From a virus (lineage: Duplodnaviria > Heunggongvirae > Uroviricota > Caudoviricetes): DNA of 43,504 nt. The stretch spans positions 1-43,504 of the IMG/VR virus record IMGVR_UViG_646862326_000012; one strand, written 5' to 3'. This document shows, one piece after another, positions 1,397-43,504 of this stretch (its first letter is position 1; the number at the start of each line of letters is the position of its first letter). The notes below the pieces were generated by a model. It saw nothing but the letters and a program-made list of their open reading frames with translations, was not told the origin of the DNA and made no database searches. The position numbers and the translations under genes are program-made.

Positions 1397-2650
1397 ATGA
1401 AAGTCGAAATGAATACTAAACTTTTGGCCTATTTAAACAATGAGTTACATGGAGTGTGGATAGATAGTGAAAATCGTAATATCCACATAATACTTAAATC
1501 AAGCCTTCCTATAATTAAATCCGTCTGGTCAGGAGCACCTATCCACTTTTTGGTAGGTTTATCTACTAAAAATATACTAGTGATTGGGATGTTGATTGAA
1601 GATAATGTCGATAATCCATTTTTACTAGCCTATCCACCAAGAGAGGCAGATGAAATTAAAGGGCTGGATTTGTTATTGTCAGGCGCTTATGATGGTATTC
1701 TATTATCATTTTTTGACTCGCATACAATGCGTGTTATGGACCTGAAAATAAAAGTTTCGGAAAATTTACCGTGTGAATGTTTAAAAAAATTTTGTGCTAA
1801 TTCATATTCTCTCAATTCAGGATTTAGGGAAGGTAATGAAGCAATGGATGAATTCTGCAACAATGCTTTGACTGGTAACGAGAAAATAATTAGTCTGCCA
1901 CTAAGTGTAATCGATAAAAAATCTTACCTAGCAAGTGTTCATGAACCAAACGATACCGTATTAACATATGAATTTAGCGTCAGTGAAAACGGCTCTGAGG
2001 GATATGAGCAGGAAGCTCTTATATACCATGCTTTGCGGCAGGTCTTTTCACCGGAGGAAGTGTTTTTTTCTCCAGATATTATTGAGGGTAATAAAAAAAG
2101 AGAATTAGTTGATATTCTTATTGTAGAAAATGACTATGTATTATCTATACAGTCTAAAGCATCATCTTTGATTGAAATGGGTTTAAAATCTCATGAAAAG
2201 CTTTGTAGCATGTATAAGAAAAAAGCATTGCAAGGGATCGATCAGGTTAAAGGCGTTATCCCAATTCTAAATAATGATGTGGTTATTAATTATGACGGGA
2301 GGGAATGCTTAATAAAGCGCAGAAAGGGTATTTATCATTTAGTGATAATCTCAGATCTTGTTTTAGAGAAAGAAGGTGCTGAAAAGATTTATAACGAAAT
2401 TAGCAACCTTAAAGAGTCAAAAGGGGCGAAAGTTTTAGTTATGAGCCTTGAAGGTCTTGTAAATTTTATAAGACTATCAAGATTAAATAAAAGAATGTTT
2501 TGGGCAATGCTGGAGACTAAATACAAGTTCAGCATAAAAAACCGTACAATTTTAATTAGAGATATCGACTCTAGCCAAGAGAATAATCTACCATTACTTG
2601 CCACTGATCAATACCTATCACTTCTTCGAGGTGCGGGAAAAGTAAAATAA
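1397..2650 (+). CDS. Hypothetical AT-rich cargo protein (417 aa), possible nuclease-like core
   Basis: Long ORF in a markedly AT-rich island between int and xis. AAGGAA ribosome-binding site 7 nt upstream of the ATG. Residues 239-254 (VDILIVENDYVLSIQSK, nt 2111-2158) resemble a degenerate PD-(D/E)xK-type motif. No family recognised. Confidence 0.6.
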   Translation: MKVEMNTKLLAYLNNELHGVWIDSENRNIHIILKSSLPIIKSVWSGAPIHFLVGLSTKNILVIGMLIEDNVDNPFLLAYPPREADEIKGLDLLLSGAYDGILLSFFDSHTMRVMDLKIKVSENLPCECLKKFCANSYSLNSGFREGNEAMDEFCNNALTGNEKIISLPLSVIDKKSYLASVHEPNDTVLTYEFSVSENGSEGYEQEALIYHALRQVFSPEEVFFSPDIIEGNKKRELVDILIVENDYVLSIQSKASSLIEMGLKSHEKLCSMYKKKALQGIDQVKGVIPILNNDVVINYDGRECLIKRRKGIYHLVIISDLVLEKEGAEKIYNEISNLKESKGAKVLVMSLEGLVNFIRLSRLNKRMFWAMLETKYKFSIKNRTILIRDIDSSQENNLPLLATDQYLSLLRGAGKVK

Positions 2651-3130: not shown

Positions 3131-3474
3131 TGTTGACCCTCCTGTGGTTGTGCAGTTGAAAGACTCATGCCCGCGCGTTGTTGCCAGACGACCCAGCCGA
3201 GAGCCATATCCCACGCCATGTACTCGTTATCACCGTTTTTTGCTCTCCGACGATCGACTGTTTTACCGAAACGCTTTTCCATAAATAATTCATAGGCTGC
3301 GCGTTCATCTGGCTCAACTTCCAGAGATGCCAGTGCAATCCGTGCCAGTTCTAAATCATCTTCAAGCTCAGCGCGAATCTCAGCGAATGCACTCTGTGTT
3401 AAGGCGAACTCAATGCTCTGCACTTTATTCCGTGCGCGCTCAAGCAGTGCATGGTAGTTAATTTCGGTTGTCAT
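3127..3474 (-). CDS. Hypothetical early-left protein (115 aa)
   Basis: ORF with AGAGG ribosome-binding site; translationally coupled within the leftward operon. No recognisable motif. Confidence 0.55.
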   Translation of the reverse strand: MTTEINYHALLERARNKVQSIEFALTQSAFAEIRAELEDDLELARIALASLEVEPDERAAYELFMEKRFGKTVDRRRAKNGDNEYMAWDMALGWVVWQQRAGMSLSTAQPQEGQQ

Positions 3475-4349
3475 ACCCCTACCTCTTCGAATTTCAATTC
3501 TAATTGATCACCCCAGATTTCACATGACTCTGAACACGAGCCGGTATCGAATCGCCTGGCCTGTACCATCGCCTGATACAAATTTCTGTAGTCGCTGTTG
3601 GCAGACATTCTGGCAATTCCGTCAAGCGTCAGGTGACCACGGTACATAACGTCTTTACCTGTTCTGCGATGACCATCCCTGACGTGTTTGCCTGTAACCA
3701 GCTCATTAAAAACTCGCATCAGACCAGGTTCGTCTTTACATGCAAGCCCCAGCTTTTGCGTTGACTTTTTGATGCAGAAAACACAGTTCCCGAGATGCTC
3801 CGGGATTTGCAAATCAAAAGGTTGTTTTCGCCACCACCGGATAACATCCGACTTATCAAAATCTGACAGTTCGGCAAGATACCGGACGCCCGATTTCGGT
3901 TTCAGCCTACGGGGTTCGTCTGCACGAATACCCAGCCATGTGATGTAATTACCTCGCCCGAAATGGTTATCGCAGTATTTCGTGAAAGGGATGAGTTTTA
4001 GCCTGTCAGTACAGAACGCGCCGCCGATGTATGGCGTGCCGTACTTTTTAACCATGTCCATAAACGGTTTAAGTACCGGCATTCGCGTCTGAATATCCTT
4101 TGGCTCCCATTCTGTATAACCATTTGGCTGCCCAAGCTCAGGATTGATATCGACCTGCAACACAGTTAGTGGTATGCCCCAGAACTTCACAACCTCCCGA
4201 ATAAAGCGGTATGTCAGCGGATGTTCGCAACCGGTATCCATAAAGATGTAGCAGACGTTATTGCCAGCCTTTCTTTGTTCTTCCATCAGGTGAACAAGAT
4301 ATGCAGATGTTCTCCCGCCGGAAAAACTAACTACATGAGTTATGCACAT
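3471..4349 (-). CDS. PAPS reductase-family PP-loop ATP pyrophosphatase-like protein
   Basis: 292 aa. N-terminal SFSGGRTS matches the PP-loop (SGGxxS) of the PAPS reductase / sulfate adenylyltransferase superfamily. GGAG ribosome-binding site; overlaps the stop of the upstream gene. Confidence 0.75.
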   Translation of the reverse strand: MCITHVVSFSGGRTSAYLVHLMEEQRKAGNNVCYIFMDTGCEHPLTYRFIREVVKFWGIPLTVLQVDINPELGQPNGYTEWEPKDIQTRMPVLKPFMDMVKKYGTPYIGGAFCTDRLKLIPFTKYCDNHFGRGNYITWLGIRADEPRRLKPKSGVRYLAELSDFDKSDVIRWWRKQPFDLQIPEHLGNCVFCIKKSTQKLGLACKDEPGLMRVFNELVTGKHVRDGHRRTGKDVMYRGHLTLDGIARMSANSDYRNLYQAMVQARRFDTGSCSESCEIWGDQLELKFEEVGV

Positions 4350-7001: not shown

Positions 7002-7676
7002 TTAGGCCTTTATTGTGTATCTTCTTGGTTTTCCCGAGAAAATCACTGTACCAATTATAGAGCAATTACCGTTAATCTTAATGTAAGGCTCAGGCCAGTT
7101 TGGGTTTAATGCTTTGAGATAACGCTGTGTTCCATCTTCTATCAACCGCTTGAAGGTGGTTTCGCCTGAATCGTGCATCAATGCAATAACGTCGTCACCG
7201 TGGCAGGCAGGGACTTCAGGATCAACAAAAATCATGTCTCCCGGGCGGTACTCATCAATCATTGAATCACCAATCACCCGCAAGATATAAGTCATTTCGC
7301 CACAGGGTACAGGGCAGGGATAAGTTTCTGCTGTGCTCAAATCAACCTCAGAATAGCCAACTTCTTTCCATGCTCCGGCCTGTACCCATGATATGACAGG
7401 GACTAACGTTATTTGTTTGTTAGTGATTGAAACATCAGGTTTTTTTGTGATGTTCGTGGTCTGGTGTTCTTGATCAAGCCATCCGACAGGCAGGTCGAAA
7501 CATTTTTCGATGTGCCTTGCCATGCTGTCACCGATATTTTTAGTAGCACCATCTCCCATAAACCTGCTGGTCTGGGTTGGCTCGCGATCAATCATGGTGG
7601 CAAAGGAAGAATTCCCGCCAACACCATCTCTCAGTTTTCTGGCGTTAGACCGCCGGATGTCATGGACTGTTTTCAT
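7002..7676 (-). CDS. cI: CI-type prophage repressor (HTH + S24 LexA-like peptidase domain)
   Basis: 224 aa. C-terminal RVIGDSM motif (S24 serine nucleophile context) and an Ala-Gly (QAGAW) candidate autocleavage site. Divergent from the cro-like gene. Confidence 0.9.
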   Translation of the reverse strand: MKTVHDIRRSNARKLRDGVGGNSSFATMIDREPTQTSRFMGDGATKNIGDSMARHIEKCFDLPVGWLDQEHQTTNITKKPDVSITNKQITLVPVISWVQAGAWKEVGYSEVDLSTAETYPCPVPCGEMTYILRVIGDSMIDEYRPGDMIFVDPEVPACHGDDVIALMHDSGETTFKRLIEDGTQRYLKALNPNWPEPYIKINGNCSIIGTVIFSGKPRRYTIKA

Positions 7677-9624: not shown

Positions 9625-10439
9625 GTATGGAGCTGATGGTTAAAGCGATGAAAATTCGAGTGGGTAATCCATTGCGAAAACTGGTTCTGATCAAGCTGGC
9701 TGATAATGCCAGCGATCAGGGTGAGTGCTGGCCCAGCTACCAGCATATTGCTGACCAGTGCGAGATTAGCAAACGTTCTGTGATGAATCATATTGCGGCC
9801 CTTTGTGAGTCCGGGCTGGTAAAAAAAGTCACCCGGAAAGGTGAAAAAGGTAACTCAAGTAATATCTATCTCCTTCATCTGGATGGTGCAGGAGATTCAC
9901 TAGGGGGTAGTGCAAATAATTCACTATCTGGTGCAGCAAATTCACTAGGTAGTGCAGGAGTTGCACCAGGGGGTAGTGCAGGAGATTCACCCAGAACCAG
10001 TCACTCTTTTGAACCAGTCAAAGAACCAGTCAATGAACCAATAGCTGTTGGTGCATCAGTTGATGAGCCCGTGCGAGTTCGTTCAAACCGACCGGAATAC
10101 TCTCCGGAGTTTGAGCAGGCATGGCTGGCATATCCCAAACGTGCTGGTGGCAATTCAAAATCTGCAGCCTTCAAAGCCTGGAAAGCCCGTTTGAATGAGG
10201 GAGTAAACCCCGAAACCATGCTGGAAGGTGTGAAACGCTACGCGGGCTGGGTATCTGCGATGGGTAACAGCGGCACACAATTTGTGAAACAGGCTGTCAC
10301 GTTCTTTGGTCCGGATCGTCATTTCGAAGAATTCTGGGAAGTTCCTGCGGTATCTGCAGCCAGACGCGAGGACCCGTACTTCAAAGCCAGTTACGACAAC
10401 GTGGACTACAGCCAGATCCCGGCAGGATTCAGGGGGTGA
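9621..10439 (+). CDS. Replication initiation protein (O-like, N-terminal HTH)
   Basis: 272 aa. N-terminal winged-helix/HTH region (LVLIKLADNASDQGECWPSYQHIADQ...) typical of phage replication-initiator N-domains. Central low-complexity linker encoded by iteron-like DNA repeats. Confidence 0.6.
   Translation: MSMELMVKAMKIRVGNPLRKLVLIKLADNASDQGECWPSYQHIADQCEISKRSVMNHIAALCESGLVKKVTRKGEKGNSSNIYLLHLDGAGDSLGGSANNSLSGAANSLGSAGVAPGGSAGDSPRTSHSFEPVKEPVNEPIAVGASVDEPVRVRSNRPEYSPEFEQAWLAYPKRAGGNSKSAAFKAWKARLNEGVNPETMLEGVKRYAGWVSAMGNSGTQFVKQAVTFFGPDRHFEEFWEVPAVSAARREDPYFKASYDNVDYSQIPAGFRG
9885..10045. repeat. Iteron-like direct repeats inside the O-like gene (candidate ori)
   Basis: About 4 copies of a ~24-bp unit (ATTCACTAGGGGGTAGTGCA-like), followed by 3-4 copies of GAACCAGTCA. 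Arrangement is analogous to lambda ori iterons embedded in gene O. Confidence 0.5.
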
Positions 10440-15843: not shown

Positions 15844-15919
15844 GGCCCTTTAGCTCAGTGGTGAGAGCGAGCGACTCATAATCGCCAGGTCGCTGGTTCA
15901 AATCCAGCAAGGGCCACCA
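15844..15919 (+). tRNA. tRNA with CAU anticodon (Ile2/lysidine-type, ileX/ileZ-like; could be scored as Met)
   Basis: 76-nt cloverleaf folded by eye: acceptor GGCCCTT/AAGGGCC, anticodon loop CTCATAA, T-loop TTCAAAT, 3' CCA. Close to E. coli ileX as remembered. Confidence 0.8.
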
Positions 15920-15920
15920 A

Positions 15921-15990
15921 CTGCCACTAGCTCATCAGGAAGGAGCTTCAACCCTTTAAGTGCGAGGTTCGAGTCCCCGGTGGCGGTCCA
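15921..15990 (+). pseudogene. Degenerate tRNA-like element (possible tRNA-Arg remnant)
   Basis: Acceptor stem, D-arm, T-arm (GGTTCGAGTCC) and CCA are present, but the anticodon arm is too short to fold canonically. ACCCTTTAAGT resembles the argU anticodon region with deletions. Confidence 0.35.
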
Positions 15991-15992
15991 GT

Positions 15993-16068
<76 letters not shown>

Positions 16069-16071
16069 TAT

Positions 16072-16146
<75 letters not shown>

Positions 16147-37481: not shown

Positions 37482-39845
37482 GTGGATATGGCAGCAGTAA
37501 AAATCTCAGGTGTGCTGAAAGATGGTGCGGGTAAACCAATACAGAACTGCACTATTCAACTGAAGGCAAAGCGTAACAGCACCACGGTACTGGTGAACAC
37601 GGTGGCCTCTGAAAATCCGGATGAAGCCGGGCGTTACAGCATGGATGTTGAGTATGGCCAGTACAGCGTCATCCTGCTGGTTGAAGGTTTTCCGCCTTCA
37701 CATGCCGGGACCATTACCGTCTATGAAGGCTCCAGACCAGGTACGCTGAATGATTTTCTCGGTGCCATGACGGAAGATGATGTCATGCCGGAGGCATTGC
37801 GTCGTTTTGAGGCAATGGTGGAAGAAGCGGCACGCAACGCCGAAGCCGCCTCTCAGAGCGCAGCGGCGGCAAAGAAATCCGAAACTGCAGCGGCATCATC
37901 GAAGAACGCGGCGAAAACCTCAGAAACGAATGCAGCTAACAGCGCACAGGCGGCAGCGACCTCACAGACTGCATCGGCAAACTCCGCGACAGCAGCCAAA
38001 AAATCAGAAACCAACGCGAAAAACAGTGAGACAGCCGCAAAGACGAGCGAAACCAACGCAAAGTCCAGCCAGACGGCAGCGAAAACAAGCGAAACGAATG
38101 CCAAAGCCAGTGAAACTGCGGCGAAAAGCAGTCAGGATGCAGCAGCCGAAAGCGAGAGTGCTGCAGCTGGTTCTGCGACTTCAGCAGCTGGATCAGCAAC
38201 TGCTGCGGCTAACAGCCAGAAAGCCGCGAAGACGAGCGAAACTAACGCAAAGTCCAGCCAGACGGCAGCGAAGACCAGCGAAACGAATGCCAAAGCCAGC
38301 GAAACTGCGGCGAAAAACAGTCAGGATGCAGCAGCCCAAAGCGAGAGTGCCGCAGCTGGTTCTGCAACAGCGGCAGCTAATAGCCAAAAAGCTGCAAAAA
38401 CCAGTGAAACTAACGCAAAGACGAGTGAAACAAAAGCAGCAGCCAGCGAGACAGAAGCAACGTCAGCCGCAACAAGAGCAGAGAATGCAGCCCGGATTGC
38501 AGAAGATGCCGCTGATCCTGCTTCTGTCCCTCCGCTTCCTGATATCTGGCTACCTTTGAATGATTCTCTGGAAGCGATAACAGGGTATGCCCCGGGCTAT
38601 AAAACAATAACCATCGGCAGTGATGAAATAACAATGCCTGTTAATGGCATATGCCAATTTAGCCGGGCTTCATCTGCAACGTATATTGATAAGTCCGGGC
38701 ATATTACCGTGGCAGGCAATAACGTTCCTCGTTTTGAAAAATATGGTTTGCTGATAGAGAATCAGCGAACAAACATGTTCGTAAATAGTTTTAATCCTGA
38801 TGCGTGGAATAAAAGCGGTGGTATATCTGTAACATCATCAACAGATGAATTTGAGTTTAAATATGGACGTTTCACAGTAGGAAGTGAGATAGCAGGAACG
38901 ACAACAGGGAGAAATATATGCACAGTTGCTGGTAATAAAGGCATAGATGTGACTGGCGATGATCAGTACAGTAAAGGTCCGTATGTTACCGCGTCGTTCA
39001 GGGTAAGAAGTGATCTCAATGTTCGCGCACGTATCCGTTTTGAACGGTATAACTCGGAAGGATACACTTTCCTTTGTGACGCCTATTTGTCATTACAGAC
39101 TCATGAACTACAAATTACGGGTGGTAATGCCCAGCTATTAACAGCAAACTTTGAAATCGACCCTGGTAGTGGATGGATATATTTTCAGGCAACACTGAAA
39201 TGTCTGCCAGAATGGGGAATGGTTGGTACGCAGCTGCAAATTGCAGCCGACAGAGCAGTGGGGGCTTTTGCAACAGGTGACTGGATAGAAGTAACCACCC
39301 CGCAATTCGAGTATGGTGCTTGTGCAACTTCCTTCATCATAACGACAACAGAGCCAGCGACTCGTGCATCAGATTTATGTAAATTTCCGCTGATGAAAAA
39401 TATGTATACCATGCCTTTTACGTTCATGGCGGAAGTCCATAAAAACTGGTTTATTTCTCATAATGCAGCACCGCGTGTCATTGATTCAGAAAATCACCAG
39501 TCCGGAGGCCCATTTATTATGGGGTTTGGTTCTTCTGGAACTATCAGTCAGGACGGTTATTCGTATTGCGATATAGGCGGGGCTAACCGACGTGTATATG
39601 AATCATGCGGAGTAAGGGATCTCGTTATGGGATTCAGGGTTAAGGCTGACGGCATGACATGCTCATTTGCAAATAAGCATATAAGCACTGAAACAAAAAC
39701 AGTATGGAAATATATTCGTGAAGCAGCCGTGATTCGTATCGGGGGGCAAACGACGACAGGATTACGACACCTTAATGGTCATATAAAAAACCTCCGTTTC
39801 TGGAACAGAGCATTGTCAGATACGCAGCTTAAGGAATACGTATAA
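37482..39845 (+). CDS. stf: Side tail fibre protein (Stf-like N-terminus, Ala/Ser/Thr-rich repeat collar, AT-rich C-terminal lectin-like domain)
   Basis: 787 aa. N-terminus MAVKISGVLKDGAGKPIQNCTIQLKA resembles lambda Stf. Central tandem repeats (AAKTSETNAKSSQTAAK...). C-terminus ends ...NLRFWNRALSDTQLKEYV, reminiscent of LamG/ConA-like lectin domains. Confidence 0.85.
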   Translation: MDMAAVKISGVLKDGAGKPIQNCTIQLKAKRNSTTVLVNTVASENPDEAGRYSMDVEYGQYSVILLVEGFPPSHAGTITVYEGSRPGTLNDFLGAMTEDDVMPEALRRFEAMVEEAARNAEAASQSAAAAKKSETAAASSKNAAKTSETNAANSAQAAATSQTASANSATAAKKSETNAKNSETAAKTSETNAKSSQTAAKTSETNAKASETAAKSSQDAAAESESAAAGSATSAAGSATAAANSQKAAKTSETNAKSSQTAAKTSETNAKASETAAKNSQDAAAQSESAAAGSATAAANSQKAAKTSETNAKTSETKAAASETEATSAATRAENAARIAEDAADPASVPPLPDIWLPLNDSLEAITGYAPGYKTITIGSDEITMPVNGICQFSRASSATYIDKSGHITVAGNNVPRFEKYGLLIENQRTNMFVNSFNPDAWNKSGGISVTSSTDEFEFKYGRFTVGSEIAGTTTGRNICTVAGNKGIDVTGDDQYSKGPYVTASFRVRSDLNVRARIRFERYNSEGYTFLCDAYLSLQTHELQITGGNAQLLTANFEIDPGSGWIYFQATLKCLPEWGMVGTQLQIAADRAVGAFATGDWIEVTTPQFEYGACATSFIITTTEPATRASDLCKFPLMKNMYTMPFTFMAEVHKNWFISHNAAPRVIDSENHQSGGPFIMGFGSSGTISQDGYSYCDIGGANRRVYESCGVRDLVMGFRVKADGMTCSFANKHISTETKTVWKYIREAAVIRIGGQTTTGLRHLNGHIKNLRFWNRALSDTQLKEYV
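38041..38369. repeat. In-frame tandem duplication (approx. 189-bp unit, two near-identical copies) inside the tail fibre gene
   Basis: 38041-38180 and 38230-38369 are near-identical (for example AGACGAGCGAAAC[C/T]AACGCAAAGTCCAGCCAGACGGCAGCGAA...); the 189-bp offset preserves the reading frame. Confidence 0.8.
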
Positions 39846-40114
39846 TGCGGGATATAACATTACGATTCGATAACAGAGAACAGTTTAACGCAATTGTATA
39901 TGACAGTGGCCTGTTCAGTCTTGAAGAAGAAAATGGGATTCTTGTTGATGTTATTGGTTGCATTATCGATTACGAGGAGCCAGAAAACGAAAGATGTACA
40001 GGCATTGATCGCGGTGGTTTTTTCGTAAACATGAGGATTGTTGATAGCAGTAAAAACATATCTTCTTTAATGCCTTTCATTACGACAGATCAGCATGTAA
40101 GGACATGGGCTTAA
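39845..40114 (+). CDS. Hypothetical protein (89 aa), possible fibre accessory/assembly factor
   Basis: TAATG overlap with the stf stop; AT-rich; no recognised motif. Confidence 0.45.
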   Translation: MRDITLRFDNREQFNAIVYDSGLFSLEEENGILVDVIGCIIDYEEPENERCTGIDRGGFFVNMRIVDSSKNISSLMPFITTDQHVRTWA

Positions 40115-40126
40115 TGGAGTAAGACA

Positions 40127-41167
40127 ATGGTTACAAAAACAGTAATTCCTGATGACATCAAAACGCTAAAATCGGATGTTAGTAAATTAAAAACCGATCA
40201 AGGAAACTACGCAACAAAATCTTATGTAGACAATAAAACAACATGGAATGGTTATTGCAATGTAATCTATGATCAAAAAACATTGCCAACAACTGGAACT
40301 ATATTCAGCGGTAAGCTGCATTTGTCAAATAAGACTGGTGAAACGGAAAACGCTTATAGTGACATATATACCAGAAAAAATATTGATGGTACTAAAGATA
40401 CAATGACGAGGATCGTCACACATAACGGGAAAAAAGGTATCTTTTGGGACTTTAGTGATCTTTACGGAGGAACTTTAATTTTTCCAGGCAGTGATGGTTA
40501 CCTTAAGATGGGGAACTGTCTCATGTCGTATGGTGTGCGGGGAAGTAACGCGCTTATTAAGTTTGATAATACAGACTCATTGCAGATCAAATATGCTAAT
40601 CACGGGTCGACCATGACACTAAACACGCAAGGTACGGCGTATTCTGGTGTGTCGACGTTATTATGGGGAAATTCCAGTCGTCCAGTTGTTTATGAAATTA
40701 GGGATGATGGCGGGCTTTTTTTGTTTTATGCACAAAGGAACCCAGATAAAACCTATCAGCTTGAGATAAACGGGCCATGCAAGGCTACATCATTCGACCA
40801 GGTGTCGGACAGAGATCTTAAAGAAAACATTCAGGTTATTGATAATGCCACTGAGCGCATCAGATTAATGAATGGGTATACTTACCGTCTCAAGTCTAAT
40901 GGTATGCCTTATGCTGGCGTTATTGCGCAAGAGGCACTTAATGCAATCCCTGAATCAGTTGGTAGCACAATAAAGTACAAGAGCGGGGACAATGGGTCTG
41001 ATGGAGAAGAGGGAGAAAGATACTATACCGTCGATTACTCAGGCGTAACGGGTTTGCTTGTTCAGGTAGCCAGAGAGTCAGACGACAGGATAACAGCACT
41101 GGAAGAAGAAAACGCAGAATTAAGACAAAGATTATCTGCAATTGAGGCGGCGCTTGCGTCTAAATAA
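40127..41167 (+). CDS. Tail fibre / tailspike-like protein with C-terminal S74 intramolecular chaperone (autoproteolytic) domain
   Basis: 346 aa. C-terminal SDRDLKENIQVIDNA...LMNGYTYRLKSNG...AGVIAQEA...YTVDYSGVTGLLVQ then coiled coil: the signature of the peptidase S74 / endosialidase chaperone domain. AT-rich. Confidence 0.7.
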   Translation: MVTKTVIPDDIKTLKSDVSKLKTDQGNYATKSYVDNKTTWNGYCNVIYDQKTLPTTGTIFSGKLHLSNKTGETENAYSDIYTRKNIDGTKDTMTRIVTHNGKKGIFWDFSDLYGGTLIFPGSDGYLKMGNCLMSYGVRGSNALIKFDNTDSLQIKYANHGSTMTLNTQGTAYSGVSTLLWGNSSRPVVYEIRDDGGLFLFYAQRNPDKTYQLEINGPCKATSFDQVSDRDLKENIQVIDNATERIRLMNGYTYRLKSNGMPYAGVIAQEALNAIPESVGSTIKYKSGDNGSDGEEGERYYTVDYSGVTGLLVQVARESDDRITALEEENAELRQRLSAIEAALASK

Positions 41168-41173
41168 TATTAA

Positions 41174-41194
41174 GGGGCCGAGCGCCCCGTTTTA
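41174..41194 (+). terminator. Hairpin plus T-run after the S74-domain fibre gene
   Basis: GGGGCCGAGCGCCCCG followed by TTTTATT. Confidence 0.45.
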
Positions 41195-41497
41195 TTGAGT
41201 AGGATGAAAATGGATATAACACCTTTCCTTCATGCGCTTTGTGCTGTGGCTGCGCAGCTACTGATTGGTCTTTTTACCGGGAACTGGGCTTACGGGGCGA
41301 TAGCCGGTTGTACGTTCTTCATTGCGCGTGAACACACCCAGGCAGAATATCGCTGGATTGAAATGTTCGGGCATGGCAAGCGAATGAATATGCCGTGGTG
41401 GGGCGGTTTTGATCCGCGCGCGTGGGATGTGGCAAGCCTGATGGATTTTGCTGTGCCGGTGGTGGCGTGTCTGCTGATCTGGCTGTTGATCCGTTAA
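41195..41497 (+). CDS. Hypothetical small membrane protein (100 aa)
   Basis: Two hydrophobic segments (LHALCAVAAQLLIGLF; FAVPVVACLLIWLLI); last rightward gene before the convergent RT module. Confidence 0.5.
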   Translation: MSRMKMDITPFLHALCAVAAQLLIGLFTGNWAYGAIAGCTFFIAREHTQAEYRWIEMFGHGKRMNMPWWGGFDPRAWDVASLMDFAVPVVACLLIWLLIR

Positions 41498-41505
41498 ATA
41501 TAAAA

Positions 41506-41541
41506 AGCCGCAGTAACTTGCCATGGCAGGATACTGCGGCT
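41506..41541. terminator. 36-bp near-perfect palindrome: bidirectional terminator between the phage late genes and the RT module
   Basis: AGCCGCAGTAACTTGCCATGGCAGGATACTGCGGCT is nearly its own reverse complement, with A/T runs on both sides; sits between convergent genes. Confidence 0.6.
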
Positions 41542-41604
41542 GGTTTGTGAGTTTAAATAGTGTGTTTATTGCGGTATATTTAAAGGACTTAATGGATTAC
41601 ATAT

Positions 41605-42981
41605 CTATGATATTCCTGAGATATCCTCTTCAAGCTCTTTTACTGATTTCGCAATTTTAAATTTAAACTTCCTCTCTATTTCACTATTGCTAAGTTTTTT
41701 TTCCTTCTCTTTACCTATCCACATAGAAACAAGTTCTCGTTTCTGAGATATATGTAAATTATCAAAGTTAGGTATGTATTTAAAAGTCTCCGCTCTACCT
41801 CTGCGGAGTTCATAGAAAGTTTTAATTAAAGACTTTGGTTTTATTTCTGATGAAAGGCCGAATCGGCGGATAAGATTATTGATAGTATGATTAACAGAGC
41901 GAAGTTGAGCTGTTGAGGTTATTTGTGAGAAGTACGATACCCATCCCAATCGTTTACCTTCAAACACACATCCCGTAATTCTGAGATTTAGTTTCCACTG
42001 ACAATATGCAACAGCTCGTTCTTTATCACGCTTACTTTTAGCTTGTAGTAGAGCGTGCCTGTATGCAGTAAAAATCCTTGCTAAAGATGACTCAAATCTA
42101 AGAATGCTCTCATGTTTTATCAATAATTCTCGATTTTCTATGTGGTATCCCAAAAAGTTAAAACTTTCATCCAAGCTGCCTACTTTGGATTTTGAGTTCT
42201 CTTCATTTAATGGATGTGGGTTTAAATTTAATGATTGAAGCTTATCAATGATATGAGAAGCTATTTTTGTTGCTTGATATTTTGGTGTTAAAATAAGAAT
42301 GTCATCAACGTATCGCATGTACCATATGTCATGCATTTTATTGATTTCATCATCAAAATTAGATAGTGATATTTCAGCTAAAATGTTTGATATCGCTAAT
42401 CCCTGAGGTACTCCTCTGGTATTATTCGGGATACCTTTGCTTCCTGTTGTTCCACTTACAGTAGGCACGATTAATGATGATGTTATTAACTGTCTAATTT
42501 CTTTTTTTCTAATTTTATTTTTTATTGCATTAATTATCAATTTATGTTCAATTGAAGGATAGAAACTTTTAAGATCTATTTTTGCATATTCAGCATAAAG
42601 ACTGCTGTTTAATGCTTCTTTCAATGAGTCAATTACTGTATGTGGTAGTTTTAATCTGGAGTTAGGATATATTTCCGTAAGGCATTCACAGAGAGCTCTA
42701 AGAGTAATTCTGTCCCTAGCAGTTGGTATGGAAATCTGTCTGGGTGTAGAGTTAGCGCCTTTAGATATTAATTTTTCTTTATATGCTGTAAATTTGTAAT
42801 TGCCAGAGTTAACCTTTTCAAAAATGAAAGCGATCTCATTTTTTATTGTCAAATCAAGTTTTGATGGGCGAATCCGATCTATGCCAATCGCTCCTGATTC
42901 TTTGATTTTTTCAGTGTATACTTTTAGAAGGTTTTTTTTCGAGAATGACTTTTTAAAAATTCTGCTTGCAGTCATAGTCAA
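41605..42981 (-). CDS. Reverse transcriptase (defence-associated / Abi- or retron-like RT) with approx. 200-aa C-terminal extension
   Basis: 458 aa, AT-rich. RT motifs readable in order: IPTARDRITLRAL (motif 1/2), IDLKSFYPSI (motif A aspartate), GVPQGLAISNILAEISL (motif B), YVDD at residues 224-227 (nt 42301-42312, motif C), FLGYHI (motif E-like). Unclassified C-terminal region. Confidence 0.85.
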   Translation of the reverse strand: MTMTASRIFKKSFSKKNLLKVYTEKIKESGAIGIDRIRPSKLDLTIKNEIAFIFEKVNSGNYKFTAYKEKLISKGANSTPRQISIPTARDRITLRALCECLTEIYPNSRLKLPHTVIDSLKEALNSSLYAEYAKIDLKSFYPSIEHKLIINAIKNKIRKKEIRQLITSSLIVPTVSGTTGSKGIPNNTRGVPQGLAISNILAEISLSNFDDEINKMHDIWYMRYVDDILILTPKYQATKIASHIIDKLQSLNLNPHPLNEENSKSKVGSLDESFNFLGYHIENRELLIKHESILRFESSLARIFTAYRHALLQAKSKRDKERAVAYCQWKLNLRITGCVFEGKRLGWVSYFSQITSTAQLRSVNHTINNLIRRFGLSSEIKPKSLIKTFYELRRGRAETFKYIPNFDNLHISQKRELVSMWIGKEKEKKLSNSEIERKFKFKIAKSVKELEEDISGIS

Positions 42982-43504
42982 TCCAAAGATATATTAATGG
43001 GAGTATATAAAGGGCGGCAGTAGTAAATATTCGAAGTAATATCCATAAAATAACAATTATTTTTTCTTTTTGTGTGGGGATCCTCGTCGTAAGTCCAACT
43101 TGAGTTACCCTTGAAATTTTATCATCTATGTCACGGTGATTCTCAACCTCATTGAGCAAATTAAAATATTTTTCTTTCTGTTCAAGAGTTAACTGTTGAC
43201 TGGTGGTAATGTCAAAATAGAGTCGCTGTAGTGCAATATAATTCCTTCTCATGGCTATTGCTCGACCACGAAAATCTAGGTTAGATACGATCAGCGAAAT
43301 ACCCAGTAGGGCCACCGAAAGTATTGCCGCAACGATATCTGTGTTATCTCCTAGAACTTTTGGAAATCGCAACGTTACAATTGAAAGTACCGCACTCAAT
43401 ATAGCATACCAAACGAGGATAAATTGAGAGTGCTTTTCAAGCCATTCTAGTCGATGGTGCGCTTGGATACGGGCTTTATATGTAAACCAAATATTGTCAT
43501 GCAT
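42953..43504 (-). CDS. Multi-pass membrane protein upstream of and overlapping the RT (possibly truncated at the window edge)
   Basis: At least 183 aa, with 3-4 predicted TM helices (FILVWYAILSAVLSIVTL; IVAAILSVALLGISLIVS; IIVILWILLRIFTTAALYILPLIYLWI). Its 3' end overlaps the RT start by 29 nt, so co-transcription is likely. The ORF reaches the last base of the window, so the true start may lie beyond it. Confidence 0.6.
   Translation of the reverse strand: MHDNIWFTYKARIQAHHRLEWLEKHSQFILVWYAILSAVLSIVTLRFPKVLGDNTDIVAAILSVALLGISLIVSNLDFRGRAIAMRRNYIALQRLYFDITTSQQLTLEQKEKYFNLLNEVENHRDIDDKISRVTQVGLTTRIPTQKEKIIVILWILLRIFTTAALYILPLIYLWIDYDCKQNF

Follow-up and report, generated by a model that had tools for sequence, protein, structure and literature searches.

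Reverse transcriptases (RTs) of the UG17 clade were reported to be strongly associated with SLATT proteins, and this pairing was found to be enriched in defence islands and linked to SbcB essentiality (Mestre et al. 2022, PMC9226505). The system was later named DRT10 and described as tripartite, consisting of a non-coding RNA (ncRNA), a SLATT protein and an RT (Tang et al. 2025, bioRxiv 10.1101/2025.10.16.682844), and a SLATT gene followed by an overlapping RT gene is the predominant UG17 arrangement (Sanchez-Nieto et al. 2026, 10.64898/2026.04.29.721553). Here, we analyzed a 43,504-nt stretch of viral DNA (IMG/VR record IMGVR_UViG_646862326_000012, positions 1 to 43,504; hereafter the window), at the right end of which an RT gene and a membrane-protein gene lie side by side. 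An earlier reading of these letters (the original prediction) had taken the pair for an undescribed RT-based defence module. Our results indicate, with a probability of about 0.96, that they code for the two proteins of a DRT10 (UG17) defence system, namely the published Eco3 DRT10 allele, carried as prophage cargo at prfC in Escherichia coli IHE3034. The locus is therefore already known and is not a new system.

The closest described system, Eco3 DRT10, comes from E. coli strain 703491 and is listed as UG17_locus_1574 in Table S1 of Tang et al. (10.1101/2025.10.16.682844). In the same study, the Eco3 RT was assigned the accession OKX54664 with a start corrected by 2 aa, which renumbers its last serine from S458 to S456, and an overlap between the SLATT gene and the RT gene was noted in the native Eco3 operon. 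Defence of Eco3 against BASEL phages was lost upon changing the catalytic YVDD motif to YVAA, upon S456A substitution, upon SLATT deletion and upon disruption of the ncRNA (10.1101/2025.10.16.682844). S456 was identified as the priming residue, since S456A abolished the synthesis of complementary DNA (cDNA), and the product was demonstrated to be protein-primed single-stranded DNA (ssDNA) made of tandem repeats of GAATCATTG (10.1101/2025.10.16.682844). The experiments that the original prediction had proposed, namely a challenge with a phage panel, a YVDD>YVAA mutant and cDNA detection, as well as SLATT deletion, have thus already been published for Eco3 (10.1101/2025.10.16.682844).

The RT gene in the window lies on the minus strand at 41605..42975 and encodes 456 aa from an ATG at 42975, or 458 aa from an alternative TTG at 42981. 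An exact-sequence look-up showed that the 458-aa form equals OKX54664.1 residue for residue, so that the RT is 100% identical to that of Eco3 over 458 residues (456 from the ATG). Indeed, the RT matched the PADLOC model RT_UG17 over its entire length (profile 1-429/429, E = 5.9e-159, 527.5 bits), and the runner-up Drt3a reached 127 bits, with 86 bits for Drt2 and 69 bits for Drt9. The fingers/palm region was recognized by Pfam RVT_1 at aa 74-281 in the 458-aa numbering (42139..42762, minus strand; 9.5e-21, 74.9 bits, cut-off 29.6). When its coordinates were recomputed, the catalytic YVDD motif fell at 42301..42312 (minus strand), exactly where it had first been placed. The protein ends in ...EEDISGIS*, and the codon at 41608..41610 (minus strand) specifies S456, the C-terminal serine reported to serve as the protein primer. 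The ATG is the likelier start, because RefSeq WP_000127306.1 uses it, the UG17 profile match starts at residue 3 and Tang et al. correct the start likewise. On open reading frame (ORF) and RefSeq coordinates, the 3' end of the SLATT gene then overlaps the 5' end of the RT gene by 23 nt (42953..42975, minus strand), an arrangement suggestive of translational coupling. The length of 458 aa and the overlap of 29 nt given in the original prediction hold for the TTG start, and the likelier ATG gives 456 aa and 23 nt.

A DRT3 (UG3+UG8) or DRT9 (UG28) system with an accessory SLATT protein was considered and rejected, as Drt3a and Drt9 scored 127 and 69 bits versus 527 bits for UG17 and the locus contains a single RT gene. 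The RT also remained below the cut-off of NCBIfam Drt3a (112.6 bits, cut-off 200).

Group II intron RTs are the other family that the RT resembles, and an intron-encoded protein or its remnant would account for part of the matches. The RT aligned with the NCBIfam group II RT/maturase model TIGR04416 over residues 16-374 (E = 8.9e-42), showed a faint GIIM match, and had group II intron RTs as its closest solved structures (E ~ 1e-14) in a search of the PDB that found no DRT10 structure; an AlphaFold 3 model of the RT has already been published. However, the TIGR04416 score of 143.5 bits is far below the cut-off of 300 and the 527 bits obtained with UG17, the RT gene overlaps the SLATT gene in one operon, and the flanks are not intron-like. 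Moreover, an Rfam search (E <= 1) of window positions 39000-43504 plus the flank beyond the window returned no match of any family. This outcome discounts a group II intron ribozyme or a retron RNA in the region and shows that the DRT10 ncRNA lacks an Rfam family. An intron-encoded protein was rejected on these grounds as extremely unlikely, in agreement with the original prediction, which had favoured a non-intron RT. The same prediction had postulated an uncharacterised C-terminal domain of about 200 aa. Judged from the profile alignments, most of this part, to about residue 374, is probably thumb/X region, which leaves a tail of about 80 aa ending in the priming serine, so this element of the prediction was not borne out.

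The gene upstream of the RT (42953..43504, minus strand) encodes a SLATT_5-family protein of 183 aa, the candidate membrane effector of DRT10. Three stretches of the protein are hydrophobic (about aa 25-52, 54-79 and 147-175), consistent with the multi-pass membrane protein described at first reading. It matched PADLOC RTasSLATT (7.9e-57), Pfam SLATT_5 (4.8e-28, 98.3 bits, cut-off 29.5) and NCBIfam SLATT_5 (1-180/180, 8.6e-39, 132.9 bits, cut-off 60). Although its ATG consists of the last three bases of the window, the gene is complete rather than truncated, because this ATG closes the window and the SLATT_5 model is covered from end to end. The protein is identical to RefSeq WP_000543833.1 and differs by one residue from the Eco3 entry in the DRT10 dataset (UG17_locus_1574), with Q109 here and R109 there; Q109 was present in all five SLATT sequences aligned (5/5). 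No SLATT_5 structure was found in the PDB.

These matches bear directly on the idea of a new, undescribed abortive-infection system made of an RT and a membrane protein. Such a reading could point to the generic RefSeq labels of the two proteins ('reverse transcriptase domain-containing protein' and 'SLATT domain-containing protein'), to the lack of an Rfam family for the ncRNA and to the lack of a PDB structure for either the RT or the SLATT protein. In contrast, PADLOC holds dedicated full-length models for both proteins, the UG17 and SLATT combination was described in 2022, DRT10 was dissected in 2025-2026, and the sequence of the RT is that of the model protein OKX54664.1. We thus consider that there is almost no chance of a new system. 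The gene order, SLATT then RT, had been regarded as unlike that of known systems, but it is the standard arrangement of UG17. When the profile searches suggested by the original prediction were run, the dedicated UG17 and RTasSLATT models matched; because the pair matches a named DRT family in this very gene order, the claim of novelty fails by the refutation test that the prediction itself had set, namely a match to an already named family with this order. What stood was its broader notion that an RT-based module against phages forms part of the prophage cargo, which agrees with the DRT10 match. For pairs of RT and SLATT genes in general, screening against UG/DRT profiles is advisable before any claim of novelty.

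The whole window corresponds to positions 5031811-5075314 of the E. coli IHE3034 genome (NC_017628.1) with 0 mismatches, and the DNA beyond its right end was read from this genome. There, a 222-nt spacer lies between the SLATT start and a DinI-like gene. The minus strand of the spacer contains a promoter-like sequence, TTGACT-18 nt-(TG)AATAAT, with 10/12 matches, which ends 7 nt before a 137-nt ncRNA (locus L001 of IHE3034, 10160..10024; window positions 43523-43659 if the window were extended). The ncRNA extends from 156 nt to 20 nt upstream of the SLATT ATG, and is predicted to have its own sigma-70-type promoter. Extension of the sequence to the right, as had been suggested, thus bore out the ncRNA partner foreseen upstream beyond the window, and it placed the SLATT start at the very end of the window and an att-like repeat at prfC. 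The predicted fold comprises a 12-bp basal stem, four stem-loops and a 20-nt loop (-54 kcal/mol, z = -4.66). Nucleotides 107-119, in the loop after the last stem-loop, read CAAU-GAUUC-CAAU (segments A-B-A'), which corresponds to the published cDNA repeat GAATCATTG in reverse complement, together with a realignment repeat. Counted from the 5' end, the positions printed by Tang et al. for the Eco3 ncRNA all match the IHE3034 RNA. U15 and U62 fall in poly-U tracts, with U64 as the last base of the second tract, the fourth base of segment A is U110, and C116, A117 and U119 lie within segment A'. The ncRNA coordinates and the template are therefore shared with Eco3, as are the gene order, the gene overlap, YVDD and the terminal Ser456; the differences are the SLATT residue 109 and the host strain (703491 versus IHE3034). 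Taken together, UG17 clade membership, an adjoining SLATT_5 protein, the SLATT-then-RT overlap, an upstream ncRNA, the A-B-A' motif, and YVDD with a C-terminal serine were all found at this locus.

The ncRNA fold was further supported by covariation. A genome scan yielded 14 full-length RT relatives with 58-84% identity from Xenorhabdus, Photorhabdus, Buttiauxella, Pseudomonas and Stutzerimonas, and the RNA was present upstream of SLATT in every one of them (14/14). RNAalifold analysis of a 16-sequence alignment recovered the same five helices, with 34 consensus pairs, 14 of which showed compensatory double changes (14/34). Paired bases occupied 99.3% of the alignment cells versus about 50% when the 3' partners were slid, and the observed covariation was reached by none of 500 shuffles (0/500). 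The template loop GUUCAA...CAA was kept, and the form CAA(N)-B(5-7 nt)-CAA(N) occurred in 16/16 aligned sequences, with segment B varying in both sequence and length (5-7 nt) among the more distant relatives.

A structured RNA beside an RT and a small membrane protein also recalls retrons with a 2TM effector, and an earlier classification placed the related loci of E. coli H120 and Klebsiella KpCIUCICRE8 among them. Besides the ncRNA, weak matches to the retron St85 RT (58.8 bits) and to the PADLOC retron-type '2TM Effector' models (E ~ 1e-4) fit such a view. However, the cut-off of retron_St85_RT is 235 bits, no retron RT model was among the best 25 PADLOC matches, the ncRNA has no msr/msd-like Rfam match, and the identical RT yields protein-primed tandem-repeat ssDNA instead of branched msDNA. 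Consistently, the H120 and KpCI systems have been listed as earlier misclassified retrons (Sanchez-Nieto et al., 10.64898/2026.04.29.721553). A retron was thus rejected, with an RT score far under the cut-off and no msr/msd RNA, and we give this classification only the slightest chance.

The mechanism of DRT10 was published for an RT identical to that in the window, and we infer that it applies to the IHE3034 copy. Accordingly worded as a model, the RT would bind the ncRNA and prime DNA synthesis on the hydroxyl group of its own C-terminal Ser456. It would then copy the 9-nt template CAAUGAUUC (ncRNA nt 107-115) and halt at the boundary of stem-loop 5, after which pairing of the nascent 3' end with the downstream CAAU (nt 116-119) would set off the next cycle. 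Telomerase-like repeat addition in this manner would yield single-stranded (GAATCATTG)n DNA of kilobase length, bound covalently to the RT. The SLATT protein would be required for defence as a presumed pore-forming abortive-infection effector under the control of the cDNA. The original prediction had likewise proposed that the membrane protein is an effector gated by RT activity, which is in line with the models of both DRT10 preprints. In other DRT10 loci (E3659 and H120), toxicity is held in check by exonuclease I (SbcB), and activation is triggered by a phage SSB-like protein (10.64898/2026.04.29.721553). For Eco3, the cDNA was reported to fall on infection and was proposed to restrain SLATT (10.1101/2025.10.16.682844); for E3659, it was reported to rise on infection and was proposed to activate SLATT (10.64898/2026.04.29.721553).

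Several points weigh against the assignment to Eco3 DRT10 or limit how far it reaches. The ncRNA lies outside the window, so the system is incomplete within it, and the RNA was deduced from the identical public genome. The SLATT protein of the Eco3 dataset carries R109, so the Q109 allele of the window differs from the tested one. Both key sources (Tang et al. and Sanchez-Nieto et al.) are preprints, and they disagree on the direction in which the cDNA changes upon infection (Eco3 down, E3659 up); in addition, SbcB control and the SSB-like trigger were shown in E3659 and H120 rather than in Eco3. Finally, expression of and defence by the native IHE3034 prophage copy are what we infer from the identical RT. 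This last point leaves room for a decayed, non-functional DRT10 copy in a degenerate prophage, a reading that could also draw on the erosion of some related prophages. However, neither ORF is disrupted, the RT matches the active protein exactly, the ncRNA, promoter and template are intact in IHE3034, and the prophage is apparently complete, which makes a decayed copy highly unlikely, and a functional Eco3-type DRT10 remains the preferred interpretation.

Among other described systems, the UG17-A DRT10 of Escherichia sp. E3659 shares with this locus the ncRNA-SLATT-RT layout with gene overlap, the need for all three parts and a tandem-repeat cDNA (10.64898/2026.04.29.721553). It differs in its RT of about 445 aa (from published coordinates), its ncRNA of 143 nt, its 7-nt repeats and the rise of its cDNA on infection. 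The E3659 ncRNA probe sequence, searched with up to 3 mismatches, gave no match in the IHE3034 locus, and the locus is therefore not an E3659-type allele. Like DRT10, DRT9 (UG28) and DRT2 (UG2) belong to the class 2 UG/Abi RTs, and their repetitive cDNA is templated by a structured ncRNA encoded upstream. DRT9 further shares protein priming and a similar ncRNA fold with DRT10, but it makes poly-dA, uses internal tyrosines as primers and forms a hexamer. DRT2, in contrast, performs rolling-circle copying that creates a gene. A likeness to telomerase (TERT with TER) has been drawn in the literature, as both copy a short internal RNA template repeatedly with the help of a flanking realignment repeat (A-B-A'), and a phylogenetic link of DRT10 to telomerase has been reported (10.1101/2025.10.16.682844). 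Telomerase, however, primes on the chromosome end whereas DRT10 primes on its own serine, hTERT has 1132 aa versus 456 aa here, and the function of DRT10 is immunity. DRT10 thus pairs a compact, serine-primed, telomerase-like RT with a membrane effector. The proposal that it is a bacterial relative of telomerase, and the significance of the system as a whole, are owed to the published work. What our analysis adds is the native setting and distribution of the Eco3 allele, independent covariation support for the ncRNA fold, and a natural polymorphism of the template among alleles.

The template differs among E. coli alleles. IHE3034 and Eco3 have CAAU-GAUUC-CAAU, whereas the four other E. coli alleles examined have CAAC-GGUUC-CAAU (loci L002-L005, 5068-5204, plus strand). 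From nearly identical proteins, the latter template predicts a product of (GAACCGTTG)n instead of (GAATCATTG)n. For example, the RT and SLATT proteins of IHE3034 and AR434 are 99% and 98% identical, respectively, yet their templates differ. The remaining ncRNA substitutions among the E. coli alleles are located in loops or at stem ends, or change G-U to G-C. Identity between genomes is at least 95.9% in the ncRNA spacer, higher than in the coding genes, where it falls to the 90-95% band. Judged from sequence-identity bands rather than read genome by genome, the Eco3 template would be found in about 34 genomes and the alternative template in about 154. Selection on the template, which would make the repeat sequence an evolving specificity determinant, is conceivable but improbable; if it were true, the selection could reflect evasion of phage proteins that bind or degrade a repeat, or tuning of SLATT control. 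Alternatively, the polymorphism may be neutral drift, which fits the mutational tolerance reported for the DRT10 template loop.

The window represents a lambdoid prophage, apparently complete from the integrase to the tail fibres, with the integrase at window position 1 followed by lysis, head and tail genes. In IHE3034, it is integrated at the 5' end of prfC, where an att-like repeat is present, and the DinI-like gene alone stands between the RT/SLATT module and prfC with this repeat. As described at first reading, the RT/SLATT pair lies at the right end of the prophage on the minus strand, convergent with the late genes on the plus strand, and is AT-rich, the GC content being 33.0% for the RT gene and 37.1% for the SLATT gene versus 52.6% for window positions 8001-39000. 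The pair forms part of a cassette of about 2.2 kb (hairpin, RT, SLATT, ncRNA and promoter) located between the tail-fibre genes and the DinI-like gene. Four other E. coli genomes showed the same slot, in the order tail-fibre side, hairpin-RT-SLATT-ncRNA and DinI-like gene, with prophages integrated at prfC, yecD/aspS or dusA; the lambdoid prophages that harbour the cassette thus occupy at least three integration sites. Compared with IHE3034, the other E. coli alleles were 95-99% identical in the RT and 90-98% identical in the SLATT protein. The DRT10 cassette was detected in 188/5426 complete E. coli genomes, and the ncRNA region was present in all those bearing both protein genes (188/188).

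At the downstream edge of the cassette, a 36-bp inverted repeat at 41506..41541, 3' of the RT gene, forms a hairpin whose 18-nt arms show 89% complementarity. Its minus-strand fold has an energy of -21.3 kcal/mol (z = -3.98) and is followed by the U-tract UUUUUAUAUUU; therefore, the hairpin is mainly the terminator of the RT operon. The palindromic terminator reported earlier between the pair and the late operon is thus present, with its role assigned chiefly to the RT side. Homology among prophages with different neighbours on the tail-fibre side stops at the foot of the hairpin, which therefore also marks the cassette edge on that side. The U-tract is kept in IHE3034, CT265 and AR434 and is replaced by AUAUCAC in ST131-4993 and 01G17 (L002-L005, about 7190-7230), so the efficiency of termination may differ between insertions.

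At the other edge, the DinI-like gene (IHE3034 L001 10228-10476, minus strand; L004 3003-3251 and 4752-5000) always directly adjoins the ncRNA promoter on its upstream side. Two genomes carry it with a frameshift, and CT265 has two copies of it. The gene may be plain prophage backbone or may have a functional link to the cassette, for instance by way of SOS or ssDNA metabolism. Some of the related prophages are plainly eroded, with a frameshifted DinI-like gene and truncated tail genes.

Other genes in the window were also inspected. Between the tail genes and the DRT10 hairpin, a 95-aa hydrophobic ORF (41210-41497, plus strand) had phrog_1443, of unknown function, as its sole match. It is preceded by the gene for a second tail-fibre protein (40127-41167, plus strand) with a C-terminal Peptidase_S74 intramolecular chaperone domain. 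The side tail-fibre gene (37482-39845, plus strand) is a single intact ORF of 787 aa with long Ala/Ser/Thr-rich AAKTSETNAKSS-type repeats. RefSeq splits this sequence into two 'partial' pseudogene pieces, probably an artefact due to the repeats.

At the integrase end, a 413-aa ORF directly 3' of the integrase gene (1409-2650, plus strand) has a low GC content (~37% versus ~53% for the backbone). It had no Pfam or PADLOC match, its only full-length match being phrog_30399 ('unknown function'), and it may be unexplored cargo at this end of the prophage. In addition, a PAPS-reductase-family protein is encoded at 3471-4349 (minus strand), the N-terminus of which resembles the SspD, DndC and BrxP models (SspD 3.4e-15), and yfdR-, yfdQ- and yfdP-like genes come after it, to about 6257. 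This gene and its neighbours may constitute an early-region module of the prophage for DNA modification or nucleotide metabolism. Upstream of the lysis genes, three phage tRNA genes (Ile, Thr and Gly) are located at 15844-16146 (plus strand) in the identical RefSeq record.

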